From assembly GCA_934613415.1 (NCBI GenBank), contig CAKTSY010000001.1, positions 1-32,000 of the forward strand: 32,000 bases of DNA, read 5' to 3'. Both the position numbers and the translations under genes were made by a program. The notes below the pieces were generated by a model. It was not told where the DNA came from. It saw only the letters and a list, made by a program, of their open reading frames with translations, and did not search any database. How positions within the stretch are numbered: position 1 is the first letter of the stretch; the number at the start of each line of letters is the position of its first letter. This document shows, piece after piece, positions 3,990 to 31,069 of this stretch. Source of the DNA: an uncultured Opitutales bacterium (lineage in GTDB: Bacteria; Verrucomicrobiota; Verrucomicrobiia; Opitutales; Intestinicryptomonadaceae).

Positions 3990-3990
3990 A
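3981..3990. repeat. Left copy of the 10-bp direct repeat AATGGATAAA, bounding the AT-rich one-gene cassette
   Basis: It is an exact match to 4681-4690. It contains the ATG of the cassette ORF and the TAA of the DUF4391-like gene (ATGGATAA). Confidence 0.8.
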
Positions 3991-4689
3991 AAAGGACATA
4001 TACCGTTTTTAATAAAGCTTGGTAATAAACAAAATATGTCTGCGTTATATGAGCGCGGAGAAATTTATATGCAAACTTTTGCATATTTTAAGAAAATAGA
4101 AATTGGACAAGATGGACGAGGAGACCCTAACGAAAACTTGCTAAAATACTTCAATGGTGAAGCATTAAAGCGTAATAAATTTAAAATTATAGCAAATATT
4201 AATCAGGAAAATTTTGAGCGTACATTTTCCCCTAATAATGGCACGGTTTCTGTTTCGATTGGAAGTTTAGAAATTGATAAGAATACAAACGTGTTCTCAA
4301 CGAGTATTGTTTATCCCGAGATTGGCAAACAAACACAAATAGATTTCGAAGAACAAAATTTTGCGGAAGACAAAGATTTTGCAGTAGTAATATTCGACAT
4401 AGAAACTTTCAAAAAACGAATCATTGATGCACTAAAAAGACTTTCACCTCTAAGAATATACGGAGGAAAAGTTTCATATTTTGATCCAGCAAATTTTGGA
4501 GGGAACGTAGGCCCACTTATGAAAACAAAAGAATATTCATACCAACGTGAATTTAGGATATGCGCGTATTTCCCAAATAGCGAAGTTCGTAAGTTTGAAA
4601 TTGGTAGCCTTAGTGGGGTGGCATTCCCTCCAATGGATAAGAATGAACTTCATAATCACAAATTTTTATTAACAAAAAATAATGGATAA
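3982..4689 (+). CDS. Hypothetical protein (235 aa) encoded by an AT-rich cassette inside the RM operon; faint DUF2971-like resemblance
   Basis: It is a complete ORF coupled to both neighbours through ATGGATAA overlaps. Composition is K/N/I/E-rich and GC is visibly much lower than in the flanks. The N-terminal ALYERGEIYMQTFAYFKKIE..GRGDPNEN and the C-terminal KEYSYQREFRI loosely recall DUF2971. That recollection is unverified. Confidence 0.6.
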   Translation: MDKKGHIPFLIKLGNKQNMSALYERGEIYMQTFAYFKKIEIGQDGRGDPNENLLKYFNGEALKRNKFKIIANINQENFERTFSPNNGTVSVSIGSLEIDKNTNVFSTSIVYPEIGKQTQIDFEEQNFAEDKDFAVVIFDIETFKKRIIDALKRLSPLRIYGGKVSYFDPANFGGNVGPLMKTKEYSYQREFRICAYFPNSEVRKFEIGSLSGVAFPPMDKNELHNHKFLLTKNNG

Positions 4690-4690
4690 A
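4681..4690. repeat. Right copy of the 10-bp direct repeat AATGGATAAA
   Basis: It is an exact match to 3981-3990. It contains the ATG of mod and the TAA of the cassette ORF. Confidence 0.8.
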
Positions 4691-6676: not shown

Positions 6677-6677
6677 G

Positions 6678-7208
6678 ATGGAAAACAGTTTATACATTTG
6701 CATAGGAACTATAATTGGCACAATGATTGGATCTATAATATCATTTTTAACTACATTATTTATTAATCATTCAAAAAACAGAAGAGAAGATAATCTCTAT
6801 CTTAGGGAAAAACGTGAACACTTGTATTTAGAGGCAATAGATTGCCTCTATCTTATGTGTAAAAAGATAAAACCACATGTCTCAAAATCAGAAGCTGAAC
6901 ACATAGCGAAAGAAATAAAAGAAATAACTTCAAGGCTTAGTAGCAGATTTGTTTTATACGCTTCTACAGAAGTACGAACGAAATTTGCAGCATTCGTACC
7001 TATTGCGGATATAATTTACAATCTTGCAGATATTCCAGAAGCAGCGAACTTACGACAGGAACAATTTGATAAAATCGCGGCATCAAACAAGGTTACTGAA
7101 TTGATAGAAGCGATGAAAAAAGAACTCGGGACATTAGAAAAGCAAAAAACAAAAGGGTTCCAATGCAATCTTTGCTCGTGGATACAAAGTAAATTCTCTG
7201 CAAAATGA
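6678..7208 (+). CDS. Hypothetical small membrane protein (176 aa) inserted between mod and res
   Basis: ATG 6678 lies one nucleotide after the mod stop (TAA 6674-6676). The stop overlaps the res start (ATGA 7205-7208). There is one N-terminal TM helix (LYICIGTIIGTMIGSIISFLTTLFI), and the rest looks helical. The gene is strongly AT-rich. Confidence 0.6.
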   Translation: MENSLYICIGTIIGTMIGSIISFLTTLFINHSKNRREDNLYLREKREHLYLEAIDCLYLMCKKIKPHVSKSEAEHIAKEIKEITSRLSSRFVLYASTEVRTKFAAFVPIADIIYNLADIPEAANLRQEQFDKIAASNKVTELIEAMKKELGTLEKQKTKGFQCNLCSWIQSKFSAK

Positions 7209-10200
7209 AATTAAAATTTAAACATCAAAAATTTCAGGCGGACGCGGCAAAAGCGGTTTGTGATGTTTTTGCGGGGCAGCCGCGCGTGGTTTCCACTTAT
7301 CAAATAGACCCTGGGCGCGACAGTCGGCAGGGAAAAATCCGCAATGTGTTATTCACGGGTTTTGCAAACAACAGGTTAATTCCCGCGCTTACGGATGCGG
7401 TTTTGCTAAAAAACATCAACCGCATTCAGCACGAGCAGATGATAAAGCCTTCCGACAAAATCGAGGGCGTCGGGATAAATCTTACCGTTGAAATGGAAAC
7501 GGGCGTGGGGAAAACCTACACCTACATAAAAACTATTTACGAGCTAAACAAGCTTTACGGCTGGAGCAAATTCATAATAGTAGTGCCGTCGGTTGCAATC
7601 CGCGAGGGTGTGTATAAGTCGTTCTCGGTAACGGCGGAGCATTTCAAGGAAGAATACGGCAAGCAAATTCGCTTTTTCATCTACAATTCGGGCAACCTGC
7701 AAAACATTTCGCAATTTGCAAGCGACAGCTCCATAAACGCAATGATAATAAATTCGCAGGCGTTCAACGCAAAAGGCAAAGACGCCCGCCGCATCAGAAT
7801 GGAGCTTGACGAATTCAACAGCCGCCGCCCGATAGACGTTATAGCCAAAACAAATCCCATTTTGATAATAGACGAGCCGCAATCGGTTGAGGGAAAGACA
7901 ACAAAGGAATCGCTAAAAGACTTCAATCCGCTCTTCACGTTGCGCTACTCGGCAACGCATAAAAAGGACAGCATCTACAATATGGTTTACAGGCTCGACG
8001 CAATCGACGCCTACAATCAAAAGCTTGTAAAGAAAATCGCGGTAAAGGGAATTTCGCAAAGCACAACAACAGGCACTTCGGGCTACTTGTATTTGCAGGG
8101 GATAATTCTTTCGCCCAGCAAACCGCCGCGCGCAAAGCTTGAATTCGACATAAAGGGCGCGGACAAAATCCGCAGAACCACAAAGATTTTCGACCAAGGC
8201 AACGACATCTACGCATCTTCGAGAGAGCTTGATGAATACAAAGACCGCTACGTTATAAAAACTATCGACGGCAGGGACAATTCTGTGGAGCTTTTAAACG
8301 GCACAAAGCTTTTTGTAGGCGACGTTATAGGCGCGGTAGACGAAGACCAGCTGCGCCGCATTCAAATTCGCGAGACGATAATTTCGCACCTCGAACGCGA
8401 GCGCGAGCTTTTCAAAAAGGGCATAAAAGTGTTGTCGCTTTTCTTTATCGACCAAGTTGCCCACTACAAGATTTACAACGACAAAAACGAAGCCTGCAAC
8501 GGCGAGTTTGCCGACATTTTCGAGGAGGAATACGCAAGCGTAGTTCAAGACTTTCTCGACGATTTGGCGGTTGACCAAGATTACAAAAACTACCTAAAAG
8601 CCCACACTGCCGCGCAAATCCACGTTGGCTATTTTTCGATAGACAAAAAAAGCAAGCACTTTGTAGACAGCGATGTTAAGGAAGACAGAAAAGCCAAAAT
8701 TTCAAACGACGTTGACGCCTACGACCTTATCATGAAAAACAAGGAAAGGCTGCTCGATTTAAACGAACCCGTGCGCTTTATATTCTCGCACTCGGCGTTG
8801 CGCGAGGGCTGGGACAACCCCAATGTTTTTCAAATCTGCACGCTAAAACAAAGTTCGGCGGAAATCCGCAAAAGGCAGGAAGTCGGCCGCGGATTGCGCT
8901 TGTGTGTGAACCAAAACGGCGAGCGTATGGACGCAAACGCCATCGGCGCGGACGTCCACAACGTCAACGTGCTTACAGTTATAGCGAGCGAGTCATACGA
9001 AAAATTTGCAAGCTCGCTTCAAACCGAATACGCCGAAGCCGTTTCCGACCGTCCCTGCAAGGTTGAGGCAAAAATTTTCGTCGGCAAAATTGCCCGTCTT
9101 TCAGACGGCACGGAATGCGCAATTACGGAAGAACAGGCAAGCGCAATCTGCCACAGCCTGATAAAGAACGACTACATAGACGACAAAAACACTCTTACCG
9201 CCAAATATTACGACGACAAAGCAGCCCAGCGTTTTACACTGCCCGAGCAGTTAAAACCGCTTACCGAAACAGTCGTAAAAGTTTTGGACAACATTTACGA
9301 CCCAGGCAAAATCAGGGCGGAAAACGCCGCGGCGAACAACGTTGTTGCCCGAGTAAACGAAAACAAAATCGCCAGCAAAGAGTTCAAGGCGTTGTGGGCA
9401 AAAATTTCGGCAAAAAGTGCCTACTGTGTTGATTTCGACACGTCAGAGCTTGTCGCAAAATCAATCGAGCACCTAAACAAAGAGTTGTTTGTAGGGCAGC
9501 GGTATTTCACGATAACCGAAGGTTCGATGGCAAAGATTGATTCGCGCGAAGCTCTCGAAAACAACGAGGCTTTCACGGCGACAAAGTCCGAAACAAAATT
9601 CGCTTCAAGTGATAACGAATTCGCAAATGTCCGCTACGACCTTATCGGGAGAATCGTCGCCGAAACGGGGCTTACGCGCAAAACCATTGTCGAAATTCTG
9701 CGGGGCATTCTGCCCGAAAAGTTCGATATGTTCAAAATTAACCCCGAAGACTTCATAATGCGCGCTTCGCGGATAATAAACGAGCAAAAAGCAACGGTTA
9801 TTGTTCAGCATATTGTTTACAACAAAATCGACGCAAAATACGATACGAGCATTTTTACAGAACCCACGCTAAAAGGCAGGCTGAACGTGAACGCGATGGA
9901 AACGCCGCACCACCTTTACGACTACCTTATTTACGACTCTTCTATCGAAAAGAATTTTGCGCAGGAATTTGAAATTAAGGGCGATGTTGTTCTCTATGCA
10001 AAGCTGCCCAAAAGCTTTTATATAAACACGCCCGTCGGCAATTACAGCCCCGACTGGGCAATAGTTTTCAAGGAAGACAAAGCAAAGCATATCTACTTTG
10101 TGGCAGAAACAAAAGGCGATATATCGAGCATGTCCTTTCGTGGCGTTGAAAACGCAAAAATTGACTGTGCAAAAAAACACTTCGCCGCAATCAGCCCAAG

Positions 10201-10261
10201 CGATATCACCTACGACTTCGTGAATAATTACAAAGAGCTAATCGACAAAGTGATGGCGTAG
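7205..10261 (+). CDS. res: Type III restriction enzyme Res subunit: SF2 helicase plus C-terminal PD-(D/E)xK nuclease (1018 aa)
   Basis: Motif I METGVGKTYT, motif II IIDEPQ and motif VI RKRQEVGRGLRL are present. The C-terminal YSPDWAIVF...YFVAETKG is nuclease-like. Confidence 0.85.
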   Translation: MKLKFKHQKFQADAAKAVCDVFAGQPRVVSTYQIDPGRDSRQGKIRNVLFTGFANNRLIPALTDAVLLKNINRIQHEQMIKPSDKIEGVGINLTVEMETGVGKTYTYIKTIYELNKLYGWSKFIIVVPSVAIREGVYKSFSVTAEHFKEEYGKQIRFFIYNSGNLQNISQFASDSSINAMIINSQAFNAKGKDARRIRMELDEFNSRRPIDVIAKTNPILIIDEPQSVEGKTTKESLKDFNPLFTLRYSATHKKDSIYNMVYRLDAIDAYNQKLVKKIAVKGISQSTTTGTSGYLYLQGIILSPSKPPRAKLEFDIKGADKIRRTTKIFDQGNDIYASSRELDEYKDRYVIKTIDGRDNSVELLNGTKLFVGDVIGAVDEDQLRRIQIRETIISHLERERELFKKGIKVLSLFFIDQVAHYKIYNDKNEACNGEFADIFEEEYASVVQDFLDDLAVDQDYKNYLKAHTAAQIHVGYFSIDKKSKHFVDSDVKEDRKAKISNDVDAYDLIMKNKERLLDLNEPVRFIFSHSALREGWDNPNVFQICTLKQSSAEIRKRQEVGRGLRLCVNQNGERMDANAIGADVHNVNVLTVIASESYEKFASSLQTEYAEAVSDRPCKVEAKIFVGKIARLSDGTECAITEEQASAICHSLIKNDYIDDKNTLTAKYYDDKAAQRFTLPEQLKPLTETVVKVLDNIYDPGKIRAENAAANNVVARVNENKIASKEFKALWAKISAKSAYCVDFDTSELVAKSIEHLNKELFVGQRYFTITEGSMAKIDSREALENNEAFTATKSETKFASSDNEFANVRYDLIGRIVAETGLTRKTIVEILRGILPEKFDMFKINPEDFIMRASRIINEQKATVIVQHIVYNKIDAKYDTSIFTEPTLKGRLNVNAMETPHHLYDYLIYDSSIEKNFAQEFEIKGDVVLYAKLPKSFYINTPVGNYSPDWAIVFKEDKAKHIYFVAETKGDISSMSFRGVENAKIDCAKKHFAAISPSDITYDFVNNYKELIDKVMA

Positions 10262-11705: not shown

Positions 11706-11862
11706 TAAGTGCGCAAAAAAAGCCAGGACTTTCGCACATGTTGATATTAAGCAAGTTGCGAAAAATAACGATGCGAAAATGAATATAAAAATAAAAGAAC
11801 AAAAAAGTTTCGCAAAAAAATCGTTGCAAACAAATAAAAATAGGCAGATAAAACCCCATACT
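11706..11862 (+). promoter_or_regulatory. CRISPR leader 1, AT-rich and homologous to leader 2
   Basis: It aligns by eye over about 157 bp with 19836-19993. Shared blocks include TAAGTGYGCAAAAAAAGCCAG, ATATTAAGCAAGTTGCGAA and TTTCGCAAAAAAATCGTTGCAAAC. A conserved TTGCAA-N17-GATAAA lies about 10 nt before repeat 1 and is a weak promoter candidate. Confidence 0.7.
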
Positions 11863-12358
11863 GTCGCGCCCCTCGCGGGCGCGTGAATTGAAACAAGGCG
11901 CTCTTAACATCAACCTCATCGCTTGCGTGTCGCGCCCCTCGCGGGCGCGTGAATTGAAACAAAAAAGGCGATTACATTCAGCGCGTCGACAGTGGTCGCG
12001 CCCCTCGCGGGCGCGTGAATTGAAACGATTTCCGTTTATAAACTCGCCAACTTGGTTGAGTCGCGCCCCTCGCGGGCGCGTGAATTGAAACTGCAAACAT
12101 ACGAGTGTCTTCAAACACAATTCGCCCGTCGCGCCCCTCGCGGGCGCGTGAATTGAAACTTTGGGGTTGTCGTTGAGCTTATCAAGTTCAATACGGTCGC
12201 GCCCCTCGCGGGCGCGTGAATTGAAACACGCGTGGGCAGTCGATTTTTGCGCAAATGTAAAGTCGCGCCCCTCGTGGGCGCGTGAATTGAAACTTTTAGG
12301 TCCAAATCGTTCTTTTCAATTTCCTGGTCGCGCCCCTTGTGGGCGCGGCTGTATATTA
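11863..12358 (+). CRISPR. CRISPR array 1: 8 repeats of 32 bp (GTCGCGCCCCTCGCGGGCGCGTGAATTGAAAC) and 7 spacers of 33-36 bp; type I-C-like repeat
   Basis: Repeats start at 11863, 11929, 11995, 12060, 12128, 12196, 12262 (one substitution) and 12327 (degenerate terminal repeat). The repeat has a GCGCCC/GGGCGC stem and ends in ATTGAAAC. The leader at the 5' end and the decayed repeat at the 3' end set the polarity as +. Confidence 0.95.
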
Positions 12359-12384
12359 GTGAGTTTGCATTTGGCATTAAAAAA

Positions 12385-19993: not shown

Positions 19994-20222
19994 GTCGCGC
20001 CCCTTGCGGGCGCGTGAATTGAAACTTTGTCTTTTGCTCAATATATACGCTTGCAAAGGGTCGCGCCCCTTGCGGGCGCGTGAATTGAAACAACAGCCTG
20101 CGTTTGCCGCCAGAATATGTAAATAGTCGCGCCCCTTGCGGGCGCGTGAATTGAAACTCGATAATTCCCAAAGGAGAAAAACCCACGGCGGTCGCGCCCC
20201 ACGCGGCGCATTGGGATAAATC
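19994..20222 (+). CRISPR. CRISPR array 2: 4 repeats (GTCGCGCCCCTTGCGGGCGCGTGAATTGAAAC) and 3 spacers of 33-34 bp; type I-C-like
   Basis: Repeats start at 19994, 20060, 20126 and 20191 (degenerate terminal repeat). The consensus differs from array 1 only at loop position 12 (T instead of C). Confidence 0.9.
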
Positions 20223-21248: not shown

Positions 21249-22844
21249 TTATTTGCCTTCTACAAAAAGCACAAAAGCGGGATATTTCTTTGCAAGTTTT
21301 TCGAAGCCCAAGTCGCCAAAGCTTATTGTAAGCTTATTGTTGCTTATCGAAAAGTTTTTAAGCTCTTTTGGCGTTTTTTCGGTTAAATCCTGCACAAAAA
21401 CTTTTATGTCTTTTGCATTGTTAGGCAGCGCGAAAGTAAGCGTATTGAATTGCCCGAACACACCTATTTTGCGGTTTAGGCAGTTTTCGTTTACAAATGT
21501 GTTTGTGTTGTAGTTGCGGTTTTCGTCGCGTTCTACAAACGACACGCACAAAGTTCCGTTGGTGTGTTTGGTTGCTAAAACGTAGGGTTGCAAGGCGTCT
21601 TTTTGCGCAAGGTCAACTTCGGGCAAATCCATATTGCCCCTTACAATAATTGCGGGTGCGCTTTGCTCTATGGGCGGCAAGCTTTGGTCGGTGCGTTTTT
21701 TGAAAGCATCGGGCAAATTCCTTACCTTTTTAAATTCGCTAAGCCTTTCGCTAGAAACTTTAATGGGCAATTCTTTTGCGGCCAAAGCGGGGGCAATTCT
21801 TTGCCAGTGAATAAAAGACGTAAATTCGCGTGCGCGCCTGTGGTCTATGGCCCTCATTTCGCCGCAAAAACTTGCAAGGCCGGCTCCTATTTTAGGGTTA
21901 TCTTCGCAGGTTAAAAACAAATTAAGCTGTTCTTCGTAGCCGAAATTAAGTTCGTATACGCAACGGTCTAGCGTAACAGAATTGCCGTAGGTGTCGTAGG
22001 TTCTAAACAGGGTGGAAAACTCCAAAATTTCGTCGAGCTTGTCTAGCTCTTTGCGCGGGGTGTTGGCAAATTTGCCGTCGCCGAAATATTTGCCGTCTTT
22101 GAATTGTATGTTGTTTATAAAGTTTGCGGGAAGTGCCGGATACGCGTTTTCTATAATCAATTCGGGGAACTCTTTTGCGGCAAGCTTTGTAAGCATTTTT
22201 CTAAAGCCAACATCTAGGCAATGTATTCCCCAGTCTACTTTCCAATACCTTATATTTGCGTATTTGCTCCAGGCAATGCGTTCTTTCCAAAATTCTATTT
22301 GATTTTCGGCACTAATTTTGTTGCGGCCGTAGTTTTCGCCGAATTTTTGCGCGCTAATCCACAAAGCACCGCCAAGCCAACCATTGGCAACAAGCTTGTC
22401 GTTTAGCCATTTTAGCCTTTCCTGCGGGCTCATTCCCTTAACCGAGGGAAACCTTGTTTCGTTTAATATATGCGAGCCGAAAACCGAAATATTTACGGCA
22501 GGTCTTTCGTAATAACCAACGTCCCAGCCATCGTCCAAAATAAAATAGCAGTCTTTCCTAATATCGCCCCAATTTTTTGCCCAGCCTTTTTCGCCGAAAA
22601 CGGTTTCCTCGTTAATGCCGTCGCGCTGCGAAATTTTTGTAATGTCTTTCGCATAGTCGGGCACGGGCTTGCCTCTTTTTATGCGGTCTTTATATCGGCC
22701 TATTACATTGCTTTGCGAACCCCATGTGCACCAGGTGTTCATTGAATTTTTTTGCGGAGTTTCGGGGATAAGGTTTTCTAGCGCAAGTGCCGACAAAGCT
22801 ACGCAAAACGCCGCGGTATATATACAGAATTTTTTAAGTTTCAT
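21249..22844 (-). CDS. Secreted glycoside hydrolase, alpha-galactosidase-like (clan GH-D; 531 aa)
   Basis: There is a signal peptide. NTWCTWGS resembles GWNSW, FILDDGWD is a DDGW box, and RYWKVDWG resembles the KxD nucleophile box. The specific family and substrate are not determinable by eye. Confidence 0.5.
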   Translation of the reverse strand: MKLKKFCIYTAAFCVALSALALENLIPETPQKNSMNTWCTWGSQSNVIGRYKDRIKRGKPVPDYAKDITKISQRDGINEETVFGEKGWAKNWGDIRKDCYFILDDGWDVGYYERPAVNISVFGSHILNETRFPSVKGMSPQERLKWLNDKLVANGWLGGALWISAQKFGENYGRNKISAENQIEFWKERIAWSKYANIRYWKVDWGIHCLDVGFRKMLTKLAAKEFPELIIENAYPALPANFINNIQFKDGKYFGDGKFANTPRKELDKLDEILEFSTLFRTYDTYGNSVTLDRCVYELNFGYEEQLNLFLTCEDNPKIGAGLASFCGEMRAIDHRRAREFTSFIHWQRIAPALAAKELPIKVSSERLSEFKKVRNLPDAFKKRTDQSLPPIEQSAPAIIVRGNMDLPEVDLAQKDALQPYVLATKHTNGTLCVSFVERDENRNYNTNTFVNENCLNRKIGVFGQFNTLTFALPNNAKDIKVFVQDLTEKTPKELKNFSISNNKLTISFGDLGFEKLAKKYPAFVLFVEGK

Positions 22845-22943
22845 ATAGTTAATACGATTGATACAATTCGAAAATTCAAGCTATTAAAGTTCTAAAGCTT
22901 AGTAAAGTAAATTCTATGCTTTAAGTAAATTTTTTACAGACAT

Positions 22944-22975
22944 AAAAAAACCGCACCAAATGGCGCGGTTTTCTT
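22944..22975. terminator. Rho-independent terminator downstream of the pal-like gene
   Basis: The stem CCGCACC/GGCGCGG has one mismatch. A7 lies on the + side, which is a T7 run on the minus strand, immediately after the gene end. Confidence 0.65.
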
Positions 22976-22991
22976 ATAAATTTACTTTTAG

Positions 22992-23555
22992 TTATTTTGT
23001 AAGCTTTACAATTTCAACCCTGCGGTCTTGCTTTGCCTGAGGCGAATTTTTGTCTACATCGGGGGTTGCGTTCGCTTCGCCAACGGGAAGTCTTTCCATA
23101 TTGGCGGCATTTACGCCGTTTGTTTCCAAATATTCGCTAACAGCCGAAGCCCTTTTGTCGGAAAGCAAAAGGTTGTATTCTTCGGTGCCGTACCAGTCGG
23201 TGCGGCCAACCAAAACCGTCTTAACACTGGGGTTTGCCGAATAGAACTGGGCGGCTTCCTTCAATTTGCCTCTTTCAGAAGATGGAATTGCATATTGGTC
23301 GAAACCAAAGTAAACTGTGCAAACAATATCTTCGGGATTGATGTTGTTGGGGTCAAAACCGTCTAGCGAGTTAATGCCGCGACCTTTAAGGCCTTCGGCG
23401 TCGGCACCGTACGAGCCGTCGGGCAAGTTGCCGTTTTTGTCGGCCGAGCCCATTGCTGCATTGGTATCGGAAGGCGAGGGGTTATCCCACGATTCGCAAG
23501 CCGAAAGCATAAACATTGCCGCCAACATTAAGGAAACTGCGTATAGTTTTTTCAT
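22992..23555 (-). CDS. OmpA-family peptidoglycan-associated lipoprotein (Pal-like, 187 aa)
   Basis: The lipobox is LSAC. The OmpA-C domain shows VYFGFDQYAI...LVGRTDWYGTEEYNLLLSDKRASAVSEYL...DRRVEI. Confidence 0.85.
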   Translation of the reverse strand: MKKLYAVSLMLAAMFMLSACESWDNPSPSDTNAAMGSADKNGNLPDGSYGADAEGLKGRGINSLDGFDPNNINPEDIVCTVYFGFDQYAIPSSERGKLKEAAQFYSANPSVKTVLVGRTDWYGTEEYNLLLSDKRASAVSEYLETNGVNAANMERLPVGEANATPDVDKNSPQAKQDRRVEIVKLTK

Positions 23556-23659
23556 AATCTTTTTAAAATTGTTTAGTAAGTTATATTTGATATGTGATAG
23601 AAGATTTTTTATAAAACGGTTGCCTTTGCAAGCATAATATGAGTTTAAACGGAATTTTT

Positions 23660-24046
23660 TTAGCCGAGTTTACCCATTATATAAAAGAAAAGCGTGCCCA
23701 ACAGCAAAAACGCCAAAGCCAAAACTAGTGTATAGGCAGCCGCCTTTTTTTGCCCTTTGCGGAATATCCAATAACAATAGGGAGCAAAAACCGCCAAAAA
23801 GGGCCAACCCAAAAAGCACAAGCCGCTAAGGAAATAGGCAACCAAAATTGCGGCGGCTGGCGTTTGCGGATTTTGGGCTTTAACCTCCTGCAATTCAACA
23901 AAGCTTTGCATTGGCACAAGCTCGCCACGGCCCAAATCTACAAAGTGCAGCATACCAAGTTTGCCGTAGTTTAGCTGCATTAAGATTTCGTCGCGGCTAT
24001 ATTCGCCTATAGCGCGGCCTTTCCAATACACCTTGTATTTTTTCAT
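23660..24046 (-). CDS. GYF_2 (DUF4339)-like domain protein with 2-3 C-terminal TM helices (128 aa)
   Basis: The N-terminus WKGRAIGEYSRDEILMQLNYGKLGMLHFVDLGRGELVPMQSF is like the bacterial GYF_2 fold pattern. Hydrophobic helices follow. The start overlaps the upstream stop (ATGA at 24043-24046). Confidence 0.55.
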   Translation of the reverse strand: MKKYKVYWKGRAIGEYSRDEILMQLNYGKLGMLHFVDLGRGELVPMQSFVELQEVKAQNPQTPAAAILVAYFLSGLCFLGWPFLAVFAPYCYWIFRKGQKKAAAYTLVLALAFLLLGTLFFYIMGKLG

Positions 24047-26790
24047 TTATGCGCCTTTAGCAGTGGCGAAAAAATTGCGGGTTTTTCAAGCAACTTGCCG
24101 TTTTCGTATACTACAACAACTTTGCTAGTTGCAGCCGATATCCCGAAAATTTTGCCGCTGTTTTCGCCAAAGAAATGTGCCGTCGAAAGTTCGTCGACAT
24201 AGCCTACAAAAACCTTCGGGTTTTCTAGCATAGACTTTGCCAGATTTTTAGTTTCGGTTGCTTCTTTTATATAATTTGGCTGTTTTTCGGAATATAGTGC
24301 GGCTTTAATGTCGTCTACTTTTGCTGAATTTGCATATATCCACGAAAACGGGGAAAATTCTGCCGCCTTTTCCAAAATAAGTTGTTTGCGGTTTAATGCG
24401 CTTTTTGAATATGCAATGCCGCTTGATATTTCGTCTGTATTTTGGGCTGTAAAAAGAGAATATTCAAGATAGGCTTTAAAAACGCAGTTTACATCAGCTT
24501 TGGCAACTTCGGCTAAAGCTTCGGGCAAAGTGGGGCGTTTGCGCGCCAATTCCGTTAAAAATTGCGATTCCTTTGCAGGGGTTTTACCTGTAAGAAGCTC
24601 GTTTACCTTAACATATGCGCCCGAAACCAACTTGCGGCGCATTATGTGCCTTAAAGTGCCGTCTTGCGAAAACTGACGCCCAGTTTGTATTACTTCGTAG
24701 CCACCGGGCCATTCGTTGGTTCTTTCTTTAAGCACTTTGCTTGTATATATTTTTTTGCCGTCTTTGTCGGTATATTCGTATACGTCGTAAAGTTGTTCCC
24801 ATTCGTTTAATGGGGCAATTTTAGCGAACGAAAATTCCTTGCTTGCACTTTTAAAGGCGCGTTTGCCTATAAGTTCGGTTAAATCGCCGTAAATTAGACT
24901 TTCTTTTTGCGCTTGGGCATTTTTTATGCTTTTTGCAAAACGCTCGGGCAACGGATTTATTGCCGACAACTGCGTTAATGCCGAATAGAATTCGTCTAGC
25001 GAGCGTGCGTTGTTTATAGCGTTTTGGGCGTTTTTTATGTCCTGCAATCGCATTGTATAAGCGGTATATTTTGAAATATAGTCGTTATACTTTGTTTGAT
25101 TTAACGGGTGAAGCGGAACAATTCTCGAATATTTTTCGACAAGGTTTTTTAGAATTTGTACTTTTTTGCCAAGTTCGTTTACGGAATTTTCGAAGCTTTG
25201 TCCGTAGTCGCTTGAAAATGCCGAAATGCAGTTTTCTATTTCGTTGGACGCAAGCGAAAACTCCTTTTCAAAAGAGCTTTTTACAGTGTCTATTAAAATA
25301 TAAAAACGGCGTTTGCCTGCCTGAATTTTTTCGGAAATTTCGCTTTCGTCTTCTTTTGGCAGCTTTTGCGCGCTTTCTTCCAATGCCGCAAATTCGGCGT
25401 TTGCCGCCTTGAATGTGTTAGAATCTATGGCGTCGGGCTTAATGCTGCCCAAAGTTTCAAGAGAATTTTCTATTTTCGCCTTTCGGTTTTCAAGCATTTG
25501 CAAAGTATTTTTTGCGTTTGCAATTTCCCTTTCAAATTTCGGGGCAAATTCGGAATATTGCTTGTCGAAATACGCAAGCGAGTTTTTCATTTCGCTTATG
25601 CTCGGCAATGTTTCGAACTTTGCCACTTCCGACATAGCGGCGTTTGCACGCTCGCTTTTTCGGCTTAAATTAAAACATAGCATAGCGCAGGCTGCAATTG
25701 CGGCCACAGCGCAGATTGCAAAGCCAAGTTTCGCAAGTTTTTTAACCTTTAACGCATGTTTGATTGACGCAATTTTTTGCGATACTTTTTTTGCGGAGTT
25801 TTCGTCGAAATACTTGCCGTATTTATTTTGCAGTTCGGTAAAATCGGCCAGGCTTTGGGCAAGGTTTTTGCCTTTTTTAGAGTCGCTTTCGAATGCCAAA
25901 AGGGCCGCCGTTTTAGCCTTTGCCGAAAGCTCGGTTTTTGCGTGTTCGTCGCGCAAGGCAAAGGCTTTGTCTTTCAAAACTTCGGCGTTGCCAAAGTCGC
26001 TTTGCGAAACAATGTCGGGGTATTCAAACGCAATAAGTTTTAATTCGTTGTAAAGCGAAATTGCGGCGCGCCAGTCTTTTGATATGTCTATAGACTTTAT
26101 TTGGCTTAAAATCTCCCGGGCATTTTCCTTTGCGTTTTGCAGCTTTATAGCGTCTATTTTTTTGCAGATTTCGCGCCAGCTGGCGCTGTCGGTGTCAAAT
26201 TCCGAGCTGTTTGCCTCTAAAAAGGCAAAAAGTTTTAGGGCTTGTTCGGTGTCGTTGTTTTGCAGTGCCGTTTTAATTTTGGCAAGCTTTTCGCTTACTC
26301 GGCTTTTTAGCAGGCGCACATATTCCGCCTTTATGTCGCTATTGTTAGAATTTATGCGCGAAATTGTTTTTATAATTTTTAGGGCGTCGTCGTAGTTGCG
26401 ACTGCGCATAGCCCTGCGGTAGTCTCTGTAAAGAGGGTGGTTTTGCCCGATGTCTTTTGTGTATAGCGACTGCAAAAGTTCCACATAATAGCCGTCAAAA
26501 TCTGGGGCGCATTCGGCGTTAAATTCGCCGCACAATGCGCGCCATTCGGGCAGTCCTTTAAATTCAAGCAAATTTATTGTATCTAAAACTGGCGGCTCGC
26601 TTTCGGCAATTTGCAACGCCAAATAGTCTCTGTTCGAACGTATGAGAGCTACGCACCGTTCAAGCCTGTCGGCGCAGGCGTTGCGTATGGCGTTGTATTC
26701 GTCGCACAGGCTTTTTATTTCGCTTTCGGTTGGAACTGTTTTGCCGTTTAAAAGCGATTGTATTTTTACTATTAAAAGTTGGCTGTTCAT
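24043..26790 (-). CDS. Large bitopic, mostly helical protein with no recognisable domain (915 aa)
   Basis: I chose the start at ATG 26790, 5 nt after the upstream stop, rather than the ORF-track start at 26868, which would overlap the previous gene by 73 nt. A single TM helix (LGFAICAVAAIAACAMLCF) is encoded around 25669-25734. It separates an N-terminal part of about 350 aa from a C-terminal part of about 540 aa. Confidence 0.7.
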   Translation of the reverse strand: MNSQLLIVKIQSLLNGKTVPTESEIKSLCDEYNAIRNACADRLERCVALIRSNRDYLALQIAESEPPVLDTINLLEFKGLPEWRALCGEFNAECAPDFDGYYVELLQSLYTKDIGQNHPLYRDYRRAMRSRNYDDALKIIKTISRINSNNSDIKAEYVRLLKSRVSEKLAKIKTALQNNDTEQALKLFAFLEANSSEFDTDSASWREICKKIDAIKLQNAKENAREILSQIKSIDISKDWRAAISLYNELKLIAFEYPDIVSQSDFGNAEVLKDKAFALRDEHAKTELSAKAKTAALLAFESDSKKGKNLAQSLADFTELQNKYGKYFDENSAKKVSQKIASIKHALKVKKLAKLGFAICAVAAIAACAMLCFNLSRKSERANAAMSEVAKFETLPSISEMKNSLAYFDKQYSEFAPKFEREIANAKNTLQMLENRKAKIENSLETLGSIKPDAIDSNTFKAANAEFAALEESAQKLPKEDESEISEKIQAGKRRFYILIDTVKSSFEKEFSLASNEIENCISAFSSDYGQSFENSVNELGKKVQILKNLVEKYSRIVPLHPLNQTKYNDYISKYTAYTMRLQDIKNAQNAINNARSLDEFYSALTQLSAINPLPERFAKSIKNAQAQKESLIYGDLTELIGKRAFKSASKEFSFAKIAPLNEWEQLYDVYEYTDKDGKKIYTSKVLKERTNEWPGGYEVIQTGRQFSQDGTLRHIMRRKLVSGAYVKVNELLTGKTPAKESQFLTELARKRPTLPEALAEVAKADVNCVFKAYLEYSLFTAQNTDEISSGIAYSKSALNRKQLILEKAAEFSPFSWIYANSAKVDDIKAALYSEKQPNYIKEATETKNLAKSMLENPKVFVGYVDELSTAHFFGENSGKIFGISAATSKVVVVYENGKLLEKPAIFSPLLKAHK

Positions 26791-26795
26791 AAAAA

Positions 26796-28097
26796 TTATT
26801 CTTTCGAAAGTTGCTCTAATAGGCGTTTTGTGCGTTTTAAAAGCGATTTTTTGTCGGCAAAGTCGCATTTTTCAAGGAACTTTTCGGCATTGGCGCAAGC
26901 TTTTGCCATTTCGTCTTTTTTGGATTGGCTTGGCTGAGCTGTGCTGTTTAAAACGTCTTCAAAATCGCGCAAATTTTTTACTATGGAATTTCGTATTTTA
27001 GAATTTATAAATGAAATATAGTCTTTTTTTATTTCCCTATTTTCGTAGCCGAACCAAATTGAGGTTGCCAAAGAGTATTCTGTGCGGGCAATGGCGTTGT
27101 CTATTCTTTTGGCTATTTGCGCAAAAGATTCGCCGCCGTATTCTACGCTGTATTCCTCTTCGGGCTCGTTGCCGCCGAACAGCGAAAACGCCAAAACAAC
27201 TACAAGCGAACACAAAACGGCAATTACAACCGAATATATGTATATTGGCTGGAATGTGCGTTCGGGCTTTGTGTTTACAACCGTAAATTTGGTGTTTGCC
27301 TTTTTTGGCTTTGCGGCGGTAAGCGATAGGGCTTCGGCTTTTGTTAAAACGCCGTTTCTTGCATATTCGCTTAGCCTGCATTCGGCAAGGGGCGGGAATG
27401 TAGCAGAATCCAAATCTATGGCGTTTGAAGGTTGCAAATCTTTTGAGCGGTTAATGCAAACTTTCCATTTATAAGCCAAAGCTACTTCGCTTGCGCCCAA
27501 AGCCGTTGTAAATGTATAACTCCACGCCGACTTGCCGTTTACCGTTAATGCCAAAGATTCCGCAAAAAGTTTTAGAATTGTTTTTTGCGGGAATTGCTTT
27601 GAAGCAAATAGCTCGCAGTCGTCTTTAATTCGCGGCAAAGCGGCTAAGCCTTGGTCTTTAAAAATTTCGCCCCAAGTTTTGCAGGGAACATGCTTTTCGA
27701 ACGCAATTTTAGACAAGTTAGGCGGCTCTTTGATTTTTTGCGGAGCTTTTGTGTAGGAATTTAGCCAGTTATACTGCAAAAGAATGTCGACAGGATTCGG
27801 GTATTTTGCGGTTTCTGCTGCAGACAAAACAAGATGGTGCGAAATAAAGTTTGTGCGCCCCGTATAGTCTTTGCCGCAGTCTGCCGAGCGCGTCAGCACA
27901 AAATAGTCGCAACCCGAGTAGGTTAGTTTATTTAATGAATATTTTTCCGAAACCGAGGCGTGGTCGAAATTGCTGAATTTTTCGACCATCAAAACAAGCC
28001 TTTCGGGCATATTTTCAGTATAGGCTGCAACGCAAAAGCCCGAGCGGCCAGCCATAATGCCCGAGGGCAAACTTGTATAAATCAATTCAAACGCCAT
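26796..28097 (-). CDS. GAP1-N2-like (GTPase-associated protein 1-like) protein with TM helix and C-terminal helical tail (433 aa)
   Basis: The N-terminus MAFELIYTSLPSGIMAGRSGFCVAAYTENMP and the later DYTGRTNFISHHLVL resemble the QLxYTS..G..G.GFQ / GRxGNxxAHxLV signatures I recall for the GAP1-N2 domain. The TM helix covers about aa 284-307. The gene starts 9 nt after the GTPase gene stops. Confidence 0.5.
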   Translation of the reverse strand: MAFELIYTSLPSGIMAGRSGFCVAAYTENMPERLVLMVEKFSNFDHASVSEKYSLNKLTYSGCDYFVLTRSADCGKDYTGRTNFISHHLVLSAAETAKYPNPVDILLQYNWLNSYTKAPQKIKEPPNLSKIAFEKHVPCKTWGEIFKDQGLAALPRIKDDCELFASKQFPQKTILKLFAESLALTVNGKSAWSYTFTTALGASEVALAYKWKVCINRSKDLQPSNAIDLDSATFPPLAECRLSEYARNGVLTKAEALSLTAAKPKKANTKFTVVNTKPERTFQPIYIYSVVIAVLCSLVVVLAFSLFGGNEPEEEYSVEYGGESFAQIAKRIDNAIARTEYSLATSIWFGYENREIKKDYISFINSKIRNSIVKNLRDFEDVLNSTAQPSQSKKDEMAKACANAEKFLEKCDFADKKSLLKRTKRLLEQLSKE

Positions 28098-28106
28098 TGT
28101 TTTGCC

Positions 28107-29846
28107 CTATACGGTTTCTATTAGCCCGTCTATTGTTTGGCTTATAGCCCAAATTGTGGGAACTTCCACATACATCGGGTTTAGCTTTTCTATATCGGGG
28201 GCAATCATACCCGCGCATTCGCCGCTTTCTATCTTTATGGGTGTATGCCCTAAGGGGCTAACGGCAAAAAACATAGTGTTTTCCGAAAGCGATTCGGCGG
28301 TGGAAACTATTGAAGGCTCGGTTGCCATCATAAACTTTCTAATCTTTTCGCTATTGCTTTTTACCGCCGACAAATCCAGGGCATTTGCCTTGTAATAGTC
28401 TTGCAGGGGTTCGTCTAAAAGGTCTTTCCATATGTCGAATTTGTTTATTATTATGGCAAGCGGCTTTTTAATTTTTGCGGCCGATTCCATTCCCGAAATT
28501 CGCTTAATGCGCACTTCCATTTCCGACATAATCGTGTCTTGCTGGTCTACGCGGCCCGTTATCTTAAGCTGAGGGTCGGGGTGGTCGCGTAGCTTTTCCT
28601 TAAAGCCCCTGTTAGAAGCAGGGTCGAAAATAAAGAATATTGCCGCGCTGCTTGCAACGTGCATTGCCCCCGGCGAATCTTCCAAATCTATTCCCGGCTC
28701 GAAATGTTCGCCTGCGTTGTCGTAAAACACCAAGGCTTTGTCGGAAATCTTGTCGTTCGAAATAGAGTAGGTTAACGGTTTTGGCAAAGCCACCATTTTG
28801 CCGAAGCGGGGGTACTTTTCGTACATCGCGCCTTCGAATGCCGTTTTTGCCAATATGGCGTCTTGGCTTGTTGTCGCCGAAAACAGCTTGTTTTTCATTA
28901 AAGTTAGCATCATATTGCCGCTTGGGTCTAAGTCTTTAAAACTTACGCCGAATCGCTGCGCTAAAACGTCTTTAAGCTCTTTAATTAACACGCTTAGATA
29001 ATACGACTTGCCCGAGCTTGGCGCGCCTACAATGGAAAATATTTTTGCGTCTAAATCTAAAAAGCCCGATGGCAATTTTTTGCGGCAGTGCGGGCACGCA
29101 ATGTCGGGGGCTGGCAAGCCCATAGGGTCTAGCGCAATGCCGCGTTCGTTAAACGAAACGGGCAAAAACCTAAGCATTTCGTCGGGGCCTAAAACCGTGT
29201 CGCCCCTAAGGCTTTCGTGCGAGGCTATGCTTAGCGCGTCGCCAATATCGAAGCTTAAGTAGCACATAGGGCAGGTTATTGCGTGCGAGTTGTACGAAAC
29301 AGGGGCAATGTCTAAAACTGCATCTAAATTGCCTTCGTTAAATACCTGCGAATAGAAAAAACCCAAGTTTGAACCCTTTGGAGCTATCGCCAAGCCAGCC
29401 CCTGTAAGCCCGCGCTTTACAACCGAGTTTTTTAGCGAGACAAACGGCACTTCATCTTCTATTCTGCCGTTGATTGCGTCGAACAAAAACCAGCGCGACA
29501 AGTCTATGCTTTGGGCTTTTTTAAGGGCATTTTCGCCGCAAAACAAAATATATAGGCCGTTCGAAAATTGTATTGTGCATTCGCCGTTTTCTACAAGTGT
29601 TTCGGCTTCGGGCACTTTAGAATTTATAAGCACGCTGTCGTCGGAACATCTCCTAAGAATAAAGCCGCCCGATTGGCCGAATAAAAGCTCTAAAGCCTCG
29701 AATACTTCGTTTGCCTTTAGCGCGCAGTTATCCGATTCGCCTATTTTGGCGGGGAATTCTTCTGTCTGCGAAATTTGCCCATTAACGCAGTTTAACAAAA
29801 CGGCTTTTCTTCCGATAAATCTTTTCGAGTTTCCAAAAAATTTCAT
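28107..29846 (-). CDS. TRAFAC-class GTPase with an N-terminal FHA-like domain and a split CxxC...CxxC zinc ribbon (579 aa)
   Basis: G1/Walker A GAPSSGKS is encoded at 29004-29027 and G3 YDNAGE near 28710-28721. G4 NKFD is encoded at 28434-28445. CPMC (aa 192-195) and CPHC (aa 251-254) lie just before the P-loop. The N-terminal 100 aa have an FHA-like beta pattern (weak call). Confidence 0.75.
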   Translation of the reverse strand: MKFFGNSKRFIGRKAVLLNCVNGQISQTEEFPAKIGESDNCALKANEVFEALELLFGQSGGFILRRCSDDSVLINSKVPEAETLVENGECTIQFSNGLYILFCGENALKKAQSIDLSRWFLFDAINGRIEDEVPFVSLKNSVVKRGLTGAGLAIAPKGSNLGFFYSQVFNEGNLDAVLDIAPVSYNSHAITCPMCYLSFDIGDALSIASHESLRGDTVLGPDEMLRFLPVSFNERGIALDPMGLPAPDIACPHCRKKLPSGFLDLDAKIFSIVGAPSSGKSYYLSVLIKELKDVLAQRFGVSFKDLDPSGNMMLTLMKNKLFSATTSQDAILAKTAFEGAMYEKYPRFGKMVALPKPLTYSISNDKISDKALVFYDNAGEHFEPGIDLEDSPGAMHVASSAAIFFIFDPASNRGFKEKLRDHPDPQLKITGRVDQQDTIMSEMEVRIKRISGMESAAKIKKPLAIIINKFDIWKDLLDEPLQDYYKANALDLSAVKSNSEKIRKFMMATEPSIVSTAESLSENTMFFAVSPLGHTPIKIESGECAGMIAPDIEKLNPMYVEVPTIWAISQTIDGLIETV

Positions 29847-29953
29847 ACTATATACGATATATTTCGAAACTATTTAAACTATTCTTGCAATTAATTACAA
29901 CAGAAAATGCAATTTATTTCGAACAAATATATAAATAAATTGTCTAAAAACTA

Positions 29954-29983
29954 TTGACTAGGCTATGGGGCAAATGCTACGAT
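29954..29983 (+). promoter_or_regulatory. Candidate sigma-70-type promoter for the ECF sigma gene, overlapped by a 7-bp inverted repeat
   Basis: TTGACT (29954-29959), an 18-nt spacer, then TACGAT (29978-29983). AGGCTAT (29960-29966) and ATAGCCT (29982-29988) form an inverted repeat. The ATG is at 30003. Confidence 0.3.
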
Positions 29984-30002
29984 AGCCTCACAACAAAGAT
30001 AT

Positions 30003-30581
30003 ATGGAAGATACAGTACTTACTAAATTGCGTTGCGGAGACGAAAAGGCTTTTGGAAAGCTTGTTTCGGACAACTACGCTATGGTGTTAAATCAGGCAAA
30101 CAAGATATTAAACAACAGGCAAGACGCCGAAGAAGTTGCCCAAGACACCTTCATTAAAGCCCGAAATTCCATCTCGAATTTCAGGGGCGACTGCGCTTTG
30201 TCTACTTGGTTGTATCGCATTGCCACAAATTTGGCTAAAAACAAAAGCTGGTATTGGTGGCGCAGAAAAAGGCATGCAAGTGTTTCTTTTGAAGAGCCCG
30301 TTGCTAGCGACGACGGCACAAGCATAACCTTTGGCGATGTTATTAAATGCGAAATGCAAACGCCCAGCGAGGCGAACATTACAAACGAGCTTGAAGAGTT
30401 TTTGCCCAAGGCAATGGCGCAAATGCCCGAAATCTATGCCCAAGTTTTAAGGCTTAGGAACGAAAACGACCTTTCGTACGAAGAAATTGCCGAAAAGCTG
30501 AACATAGGGGTGGGCACTGTAAAAAGCAGATTGTCGCGTGCAAGAGACTTTTTAAGGGAAAAGCTTAATGCCGAAAAATAG
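30003..30581 (+). CDS. ECF-type RNA polymerase sigma-70 family factor (192 aa)
   Basis: Region 2 is DAEEVAQDTFIKA...WLYRIATNL. Region 4 HTH is LSYEEIAEKLNIGVGTVKSRLSRARDFLREKL. Confidence 0.9.
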   Translation: MEDTVLTKLRCGDEKAFGKLVSDNYAMVLNQANKILNNRQDAEEVAQDTFIKARNSISNFRGDCALSTWLYRIATNLAKNKSWYWWRRKRHASVSFEEPVASDDGTSITFGDVIKCEMQTPSEANITNELEEFLPKAMAQMPEIYAQVLRLRNENDLSYEEIAEKLNIGVGTVKSRLSRARDFLREKLNAEK

Positions 30582-30583
30582 GA

Positions 30584-31069
30584 ATGGCACTTTCTAAAGA
30601 CAGGTTTCAAGAGATTGTAAGCTCTTACCTAGACGGCGAAGCTACCAATGAGGAGCTTCGCCTTTTGGTGTCGGCAATAAGGGAGAACCCCGAATTTGCA
30701 AACATATTCTACGAAAATTGCCGAATCTATATGGCATCGTGCAAAATATACGGCAAAAAACCCAAATTTGCGCCGCTGCCCGTGGTTGAAGTTTTGCCCG
30801 AAAAGGAAAAAGAAAGCCCCAAACAGGTTGCGCTAGAGTGGATTGCCGTGTTTTCGCTCATGCTTACAAGCATTGCAATGTTTTATGCAAGTTCGCTATG
30901 CGCAAGCGAAAATGTCGAAAACGCAACACAAAACACGCAATACTACAGCAATTTATACGACACAAATACAACTAGCGAAATTTCGGGCAATTCGCACGTT
31001 TGCGGTTATGTAAAATTTTCCACAAAAGCAAAAGTTATCTTGCCCGAAAAAGCTCCGACAAAAGAATAG
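30584..31069 (+). CDS. Anti-sigma factor, single-pass membrane protein (161 aa)
   Basis: It lies immediately downstream of the ECF sigma gene (2-nt gap). It has an anti-sigma N-terminal helix pattern (FQEIVSSYLDGEATNEE) and a TM helix (WIAVFSLMLTSIAMFYASSL). Confidence 0.7.
   Translation: MALSKDRFQEIVSSYLDGEATNEELRLLVSAIRENPEFANIFYENCRIYMASCKIYGKKPKFAPLPVVEVLPEKEKESPKQVALEWIAVFSLMLTSIAMFYASSLCASENVENATQNTQYYSNLYDTNTTSEISGNSHVCGYVKFSTKAKVILPEKAPTKE

Follow-up and report, generated by a model that had tools for sequence, protein, structure and literature searches.

Comparison with GAP1-N2 systems

GTPase-centric GAP1-N2 systems with Zn-ribbon GTPases have been described in verrucomicrobiae and planctomycetes (Kaur, Burroughs, Iyer and Aravind 2020, PMC7159879). 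In these systems the GTPases usually carry two N-terminal Zn ribbons, two paralogous GTPases occur in 38% of the systems, and GAP1 is frequently fused to C-terminal transmembrane (TM) helices (PMC7159879). A GYF-domain protein with a fused TM-rich region belongs to some of the planctomycete systems, and tubulin-domain genes form the centre of about half of the neighbourhoods of GAP1-N2 in Firmicutes and Actinobacteria, for which the authors suggested regulated cytoskeleton-like assembly (PMC7159879). The class was proposed as a conflict system, a computational prediction (PMC7159879). DO-GTPase genes are also found in some gammaproteobacterial psp operons (mSystems 2024, PMC11237479). Here we describe an operon of four minus-strand genes at positions 23660-29846 of a 32,000-nucleotide stretch of contig CAKTSY010000001.1 (hereafter the window) from an uncultured Opitutales bacterium. 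According to the list of open reading frames (ORFs), the operon encodes a GTPase, a GAP1-N2 protein, a 915-aa protein and a 128-aa protein, in this order, and it very probably belongs to the DO-GTPase/GAP1-N2 class. What is new here is the conserved gene order across gut Opitutales, the linkage to an extracytoplasmic function (ECF) sigma factor gene, the co-divergence with housekeeping flanks and the lack of a variable effector. We favour, with a probability of roughly 0.5, the explanation that the operon encodes a GTPase switch, passed on vertically and extending across the inner membrane, that either acts on the cell envelope or senses it and that probably works in the same circuit as the ECF sigma/anti-sigma pair.

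The operon resembles the described GAP1-N2 systems in several respects. Its GTPase is of the TRAFAC type, with the Walker B glutamate and an N-terminal Zn ribbon. The GAP1 gene follows immediately downstream of the GTPase gene, its product has N2 and M domains and a C-terminal TM helix, and the GYF partner has TM segments. The verrucomicrobiae are listed, with the planctomycetes, among the main phyla of the class. The first-pass annotation of the window had mapped this combination of genes to no named system and had not known classical GAP1 proteins to be membrane-anchored. Since PMC7159879 describes both GAP1-N2 systems with these parts and frequent C-terminal TM fusions, the operon can be mapped and its anchored GAP1 protein is not unusual. 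It is a good experimental entry point, not the unprecedented system that had been supposed.

The operon also differs from the described systems. It contains one GTPase gene instead of a pair, as do the related loci, and the GTPase has an added degenerate FHA-like domain. GAP1-C is missing, and the GYF_2-like domain is single instead of paired. The 915-aa bitopic protein stands in the place of a fibronectin type III (FNIII)-repeat protein; FNIII repeats, which evolve rapidly in the class, were matched by none of the operon's proteins and by no distant orthologue of the third one. The linkage to an ECF sigma/anti-sigma pair is conserved. Whereas PMC7159879 stresses a diversifying pattern, the same four components occur here across gut Opitutales with no highly variable effector, and their inheritance appears to be vertical and core-like. 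The main text of PMC7159879 describes no FHA domain on these GTPases, no counterpart of the 915-aa protein and no stably inherited effector-free version.

The four genes are tightly packed. A 9-nt spacer (GGCAAAACA) separates the GTPase gene from the ATG of the GAP1-N2 gene at 28097, a 5-nt spacer (TTTTT) precedes the ATG of the 915-aa gene at 26790, and the TGA of the latter overlaps the ATG of the 128-aa gene as ATGA. The third protein is read here from the ATG at 26790; the mechanical ORF list began it at an in-frame ATG further upstream, so that it overlapped the preceding gene and came to 941 aa. The gene calls and tight junctions of the first pass are thus borne out by the junction sequences, and its remark that the operon has no recognisable enzymatic effector also holds for all four proteins.

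Inheritance of the cassette and the adjacent ECF pair

One genome per GTDB species was scanned, and 399 species genomes were found to hold a relative of the GTPase. By the record titles of the best 80 of these 399, nearly all were Verrucomicrobiota (Opitutales, Puniceicoccales, 'Verrucomicrobiae', Spartobacteria and Chthoniobacteraceae); two records (L045 and L049) were instead titled 'uncultured Enterobacteriaceae bacterium'. The closest relatives were in Opitutales metagenome-assembled genomes (MAGs), the GTPase of JAXFOH010000132.1 being about 98% identical to that of the window. The cassette was also found in the cultured gut isolates Intestinicryptomonas porci and Puniceicoccaceae Marseille-Q1082.

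Mapping of 83 loci by tblastn and ORFs revealed that the order of the GTPase, GAP1-N2, 915-aa and 128-aa homologues is kept throughout gut Opitutales, where the GTPases are 53-98% identical to that of the window. Outside the three closest loci (L004-L006), the cassette is flanked by housekeeping genes, with nadK (22 loci) and brkB (21 loci) downstream and rplU, rpmA and purL upstream. A divergent ECF sigma gene lies upstream of the GTPase gene in 62 of the 83 loci, and a putative anti-sigma gene was present in at least 40 loci.

A three-gene core extends to genomes labelled Akkermansiaceae and Chthoniobacteraceae. In MAGs labelled Akkermansia or Akkermansiaceae, the GTPase gene is followed by genes for a 513-aa GAP1-like protein (hhalign, 97.6%) and for a 713-aa protein that has its C-terminal domain in common with the 915-aa protein (hhalign, 95.6%). 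Both Akkermansiaceae-labelled loci examined lie among housekeeping genes, in one case (L084) with dnaA about 7 kb downstream, and both lack an ECF pair as well as a GYF gene. When a close orthologue was sought in Akkermansia muciniphila, only MAGs labelled 'Akkermansia sp.' or Akkermansiaceae matched.

Pairwise identities were compared among 19 species sharing the nadK flank. Median identity was 65.5% for the GTPase, 63.6% for the ECF sigma factor, 58.8% for NadK and 54.8% for BrkB, so that the GTPase is conserved above the product of a neighbouring essential-type gene (NadK); the corresponding values were 37% for the 915-aa protein, 35% for the 128-aa protein and 35% for the putative anti-sigma factor. 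GTPase divergence correlated with that of NadK (Spearman's rho 0.54) and BrkB (0.66), which correlated with each other at only 0.38. The divergence of the 915-aa protein (0.80), the 128-aa protein (0.71) and the ECF sigma factor (0.68) also tracked that of the GTPase. Between the window and the related locus L005, ratios of nonsynonymous to synonymous substitution rates (dN/dS) were 0.07 for the GTPase gene, 0.16 for the GAP1 gene, 0.14 for the 915-aa gene and 0.18 for the 128-aa gene, with a similar range of 0.02-0.15 for flanking genes. All four genes are under purifying selection, with no gene-wide positive selection.

The cassette is inherited in the manner of a core chromosomal module. 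We therefore favour a GTPase switch of the envelope. In the mechanism that we envisage, the inner face of the membrane is where the GTPase would dock, both on the N2 and M domains of GAP1 and on the conserved head of the 915-aa protein, and GTP binding and hydrolysis would toggle the assembly or conformation of both bitopic proteins. The periplasmic parts of GAP1 and of the 915-aa protein may contact envelope components, and the degenerate FHA-like and GYF_2-like domains may serve as phospho-independent protein-protein adaptors. The module would work in the same envelope-homeostasis or stress circuit as the ECF sigma factor. The psp operons (PMC11237479), in which a DO-GTPase-family gene likewise adjoins an envelope-stress regulator, may by analogy provide a precedent. 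They differ in the regulator, which is of the PspF/NtrC type and not an ECF sigma factor, and in the other partners, and the DO-GTPase subtype is not stated. The first-pass annotation had treated the operon as a candidate conflict system and had named uniform synteny across the phylum, next to pal and envelope genes, as the pattern expected of a housekeeping module instead. Such synteny is largely what is found at the order level, which speaks against the conflict framing, although the constant neighbour is the ECF pair and not pal.

Several points weigh against an envelope switch. Our literature search recovered no experiment on any GAP1/DO-GTPase family member. The contacts among the four proteins are presumed, the periplasmic location of the C-terminal parts is predicted from the positive-inside rule and the missing signal peptide, and the core-like status is a deduction from synteny and co-divergence. 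In the 62 intergenic regions searched, no ECF-type promoter pointed at the GTPase operon. The conflict-system proposal covers the whole family (PMC7159879), and relatives of the GTPase are fused to predicted effector-type domains such as FGE-sulfatase, or to kinases. The three partners evolve much faster than the GTPase (35-37% median identity versus 65%), which could reflect an arms race. Finally, a type III restriction-modification (R-M) cluster and two CRISPR arrays lie 4-13 kb or more from the operon in the window.

The family-wide proposal, the fusions, the fast partners and the other defence loci within the same 32 kb would all fit an anti-phage or conflict system, in which GAP1 and the 915-aa protein would detect an invader with their periplasmic or variable parts, a threshold would be set by the GTPase, and the membrane proteins would themselves be the effector, for example through membrane perturbation or abortive infection. 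However, we consider such a system unlikely. The operon has no variable effector, its four components persist over order-level divergence at a fixed place among housekeeping genes with which they co-diverge, and the dN/dS values (0.07-0.18) give no sign of gene-wide positive selection. The GTPase is nearly absent from the mobile elements searched, with one weak match in a collection of 72,556 plasmid records, on a 1.39-Mb Rhodococcus replicon, and no match in a collection of 50,697 phage records. A search of the operon proteins against PADLOC-DB 2.0 gave only non-significant matches (best E-values 0.023 for mad8 and 0.24 for AbiTi), and NCBIfam likewise yielded no significant match. The R-M cluster and the CRISPR arrays are set apart from the operon by housekeeping genes and are outside the conserved neighbourhood.

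The conflict role of GAP1/DO-GTPase systems is a prediction, and this syntenic, effector-free version offers a natural test case between immunity and envelope or cell biology. More tentatively, the Verrucomicrobiota cassette, with its unnamed 915-aa family, could be a lineage-wide, possibly essential, GTP-driven trans-envelope machine that is not immune in function. In that case the entire GAP1-N2 class, tubulin-linked versions of Firmicutes and Actinobacteria included, would consist of cell-biological machinery that organises the envelope and has been mislabelled as conflict systems.

The ECF sigma gene is followed by a gene for a single-pass membrane protein, a putative anti-sigma factor as judged from its position and architecture (Table 1). 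An ECF-type promoter-like element precedes the sigma gene, and 13 loci (L012, L014-L016, L018, L021, L022, L027, L029, L033, L037, L038 and L075) have the orthologous motif TTTGAAAC-N17-(C)GTCTAA, which always points at the sigma gene from 45-90 nt upstream. This motif had 15 matches in 1.23 Mb of sequence, versus 3-9 randomly scattered matches in shuffles. The pattern suggests that the ECF sigma factor is autoregulated. Since no copy of the motif points at the GTPase operon, the tie between the sigma factor and the operon is positional only. A match inside the 915-aa gene (24258, minus strand) was rejected as being at chance level, the loose pattern having four matches in the window against about four expected by our estimate. 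The conserved motif provides a search pattern for the regulon of the sigma factor, and the adjacent sigma factor provides a simple transcriptional read-out.

A closer coupling can also be imagined, in which the GTPase complex is a sensory input module that controls the anti-sigma factor and the six genes form one signalling device. The divergent ECF gene in Opitutae-type lineages, its divergence in step with the GTPase and the conserved autoregulatory-type promoter upstream of the sigma gene would be expected of such a device. However, the three-gene core occurs without the ECF pair in Akkermansiaceae-labelled, Chthoniobacteraceae-labelled and other loci, and the wider family is not ECF-linked in PMC7159879, where a search for 'sigma' found nothing. 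We therefore regard this device as improbable, and prefer an envelope switch that shares a circuit with the ECF pair.

Table 1 Features of the operon and the adjacent ECF sigma locus (positions in the window).
Feature	Position	Strand	Description
GTPase gene	28107-29846	-	579 aa; FHA-like domain, split Zn ribbon and TRAFAC-type P-loop GTPase; DO-GTPase2 lineage
FHA-like beta-sandwich domain of the GTPase (aa 12-170)	29337-29813	-	pLDDT 80-90 and Foldseek matches
Split Zn ribbon of the GTPase, CPxC ... CPHC (aa 192-254)	29073-29279	-	C192/C195 and C251/C254 invariant
GAP1-type partner gene	26796-28097	-	433 aa; PF20013 match
915-aa bitopic protein gene	24043-26790	-	unnamed family
128-aa protein gene	23660-24046	-	divergent GYF_2-like domain and two TM helices
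ECF-type promoter-like element, TTTCGAAC-N17-GTCTAA	29917-29947	+	directed toward the ECF sigma gene, not the GTPase operon
ECF sigma factor gene	30003-30581	+	Pfam Sigma70_r2, Sigma70_r4_2 and Sigma70_ECF; divergent from the operon
Single-pass membrane protein gene downstream of the ECF gene	30584-31069	+	TM helix at aa 82-105

Domain architecture of the four proteins

The motifs of the GTPase were compared in an alignment of the window protein with 11 homologues of 53-65% identity (12 sequences). The Walker A/G1 motif GAPSSGKS with K280 and the Walker B/G3 motif DNAGE (D376-E380), including the glutamate of the family, are invariant or nearly so. Within the G4 motif NKFD (aa 468-471; 28436-28447 in the window), K469 and D471 are invariant, and the asparagine is replaced by glycine in most orthologues (GKxD). 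Because this asparagine is not invariant, guanine specificity is to be checked across the family, not assumed. The four cysteines of the split Zn ribbon are invariant as well. They enclose a highly conserved insert, FDxGDAxSIAxHESLRGDxxLGxDEMLRFLP, with invariant columns at positions 199-232, and the same module is present in distant relatives of the GTPase. In the AlphaFold2 model of the GTPase (mean predicted local distance difference test score, pLDDT, 70.7), the Zn-ribbon region (171-267) has low confidence, yet it is the most conserved sequence of the protein. The C-terminal domain matched EF-Tu, eEF1A and G-alpha at E-values of about 1e-5 in Foldseek; a profile search against PDB sequences gave no match for the GTPase. 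The score of the window protein against PF19993 (DO-GTPase2) was 21 bits (E-value 2.8e-4), below the Pfam cutoff of 27. Many homologues of 53-65% identity carry precomputed PF19993 matches and more distant relatives score 27.8-37.7 bits. Since relatives reach the cutoff, we placed the GTPase in the DO-GTPase2 lineage.

The N-terminal domain of the GTPase was modelled with good local confidence as an FHA-like beta-sandwich (Table 1), with Foldseek matches at E-values of about 2e-4 to 6c4u (TM-score on the target 0.55) and to EmbR, 2ff4 (root-mean-square deviation 2.2 over 95 columns). The window GTPase had no match to the Pfam FHA family (PF00498). Aligned with FHA-positive relatives, the domain has GE in place of GR (GG in an orthologue), has SRxH deleted, and retains only the structural asparagine (N75). 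To judge from its sequence, the FHA-like domain is degenerate and without the GR/SxxH/NGT residues for phosphothreonine binding. Of the features that the first pass had read in the GTPase, the G1, G3 and G4 motifs and the split Zn ribbon were thus recovered in the alignment; the FHA-like domain stands as a fold, with the phosphothreonine-binding residues lost.

A profile search of 1.84 billion cluster representatives retrieved 1985 relatives of the GTPase, 420 of them at E-values of 1e-30 or below. Many of these match the Zn ribbon and the GTPase core only and have other N-termini. Metagenome-derived relatives of unknown taxonomy, for instance P0289, P0206 and P0239, share with the window protein an FHA domain in first position, the Zn ribbon with its insert and the GTPase core (profile E-values 1e-68 to 1e-90). 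They differ in retaining GR, SRxH and NGT and in having long Pro/Ala-rich linkers. Such FHA-bearing relatives match Pfam FHA at 1e-15 to 1e-20. The GTPase core was also observed in fusions with a Ser/Thr protein kinase, with FGE-sulfatase and with GAP1-N2 plus GAP1-M in one polypeptide, besides canonical FHA (P0267, P0228, P0253, P0289, P0206 and P0239). These fusions tie the GTPase lineage repeatedly to phospho-signalling modules.

All three partners of the GTPase have predicted TM helices, namely one in GAP1 (290-308), one in the 915-aa protein (355-373) and two in the 128-aa protein (66-84 and 107-125). The GAP1 protein matched PF20013 (GAP1-N2) over residues 1-129 with 67.7 bits (cutoff 24; E-value 1.4e-18), and all 23 orthologues scanned also matched. 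A GAP1-M-like region follows at about aa 135-250. Columns 3-246 of the orthologue profile align to residues 598-851 of P0253 (hhalign probability 99.8%, E-value 2.2e-27), which span the GAP1-N2 and GAP1-M (E-value 8.8e-11) domains of that protein. The Pfam GAP1-M family itself had no match in the window protein and matched one of the 23 orthologues; GAP1-C had no Pfam match in the window protein, the 23 orthologues or seven longer relatives. Beyond the GAP1-M-like region, the TM helix leads into an unrelated helical domain of about 110 aa, which is predicted to be periplasmic. In a 65%-identical relative (L006, 9754-10677), the GAP1-N2 protein ends right after the TM helix at 307 aa. Since the C-terminal helical domain is absent there, at least one lineage can do without it. 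The GAP1 proteins of deeper lineages measure 700-1260 aa, and the third protein there measures 970-1150 aa.

The 915-aa protein and eight distant orthologues had no significant match in Pfam, NCBIfam or PADLOC. It has 22 homologues of matching length that are 27-31% identical, and the operon thus brings to light a still unnamed family of proteins of about 915 aa, marked by an invariant motif in the cytoplasmic part. With one TM helix and no signal peptide, the protein most likely has its N-terminus in the cytoplasm and its last 540 or so residues in the periplasm. The cytoplasmic N-terminal helical domain (aa 1-165) is the peak of conservation, with HPLYRDYRRA invariant; the C-terminal 250 residues are moderately conserved, and the variable helical middle is conserved least. 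The TM helix is followed by helical bundles (about 380-650) and a mixed helix/beta domain (660-915). The AlphaFold2 model (pLDDT 85.8, predicted TM-score 0.40) is locally but not globally confident and is helical with two small beta regions. Compared with the PDB by Foldseek, it gave only generic TPR-like matches with TM-scores below 0.1; in a profile search, the only PDB sequences matched were coiled-coil or designed helical proteins.

Long helices make up most of the 915-aa model. Such a protein could be the helical scaffold of a cytoskeleton-like or morphogenetic machine, for division, envelope growth or the assembly of surface structures, that the GTPase regulates spatially. The tubulin-centred neighbourhoods and the cytoskeleton-like complexes suggested in PMC7159879 point in the same direction, as does the inheritance of the cassette like a core gene. 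Against this, the conserved neighbourhood contains no tubulin, actin or division genes, and it is in the helical region that the protein is conserved least, which makes a scaffold of this kind very unlikely. Two likenesses in architecture only can be named. YscD, of the YscD/PrgH type of type III secretion system, has a cytoplasmic FHA-like module without phosphopeptide binding, and TolA-type proteins cross the membrane once and end in a small domain after a long helical stretch in the periplasm. The 915-aa protein differs from both in having no sequence match or significant fold match, and its conserved neighbourhood is without secretion or Tol genes.

The 128-aa protein of the window had no Pfam match at E-values up to 1. 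Thirteen of 20 aligned orthologues match PF14237 (GYF_2; best E-value 8.9e-8), and the N-terminal domain of the window protein (about aa 1-55) was assigned as a divergent, putative GYF_2-like domain by orthology only. Binding of this domain to an LPxPPPFDD stretch seen in orthologues of the 915-aa protein was considered and dropped, as the window copy is without those prolines. For the partners, the first-pass annotation had given a GAP1-N2 signature, a 915-aa bitopic helical protein with no recognisable domain, a GYF_2-like N-terminus and membrane anchors in all three proteins. Our searches agree with each of these, for GYF_2 through the orthologues only.

Other features of the window

Scans for sigma-70 promoters and terminators over 22800-30100 gave results at the level of shuffled sequence and so no defined ends for the operon. 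A gene for a pal-like lipoprotein of the OmpA family (22992-23555, minus strand) is separated from the downstream end of the four genes by 104 nt that contain no terminator-like site, and may be co-transcribed with the operon in this species. A meaningful adjacency to pal was rejected, as the pal-like gene adjoins the operon only in the three closest loci (L004-L006). Further downstream, at 21249-22844 on the minus strand, is a gene that is conserved in L004 and L005 only. It encodes a 531-aa protein whose N-terminal segment is hydrophobic and signal-like. This protein had no Pfam match at E-values of 1e-3 or below; its DDGW motif may resemble that of glycosidases of the alpha-galactosidase type.

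At the other end of the window, a defence-type cluster (85-10261) encodes an SNF2 helicase (PADLOC 'HKD+Snf2', E-value 8e-123), a DUF4391 protein, two small unknown ORFs, a type III Mod methyltransferase (E-value 3e-199) and a type III Res protein with a C-terminal endonuclease domain (E-value 2e-288). The type III R-M cluster is about 13 kb from the operon. No cas gene was recognisable in the window. Two CRISPR arrays, at 11862-12360 (8 repeats) and about 19995-20210 (4 repeats), lie about 8 kb apart in the same orientation, with a spacing of 65-68 nt. Their 32-nt repeat, GTCGCGCCCCT[CT]GCGGGCGCGTGAATTGAAAC, presumably resembles type I-C repeats. The arrays bracket glyA, rpiB, a low-molecular-weight phosphatase gene, purD and lptF/G.

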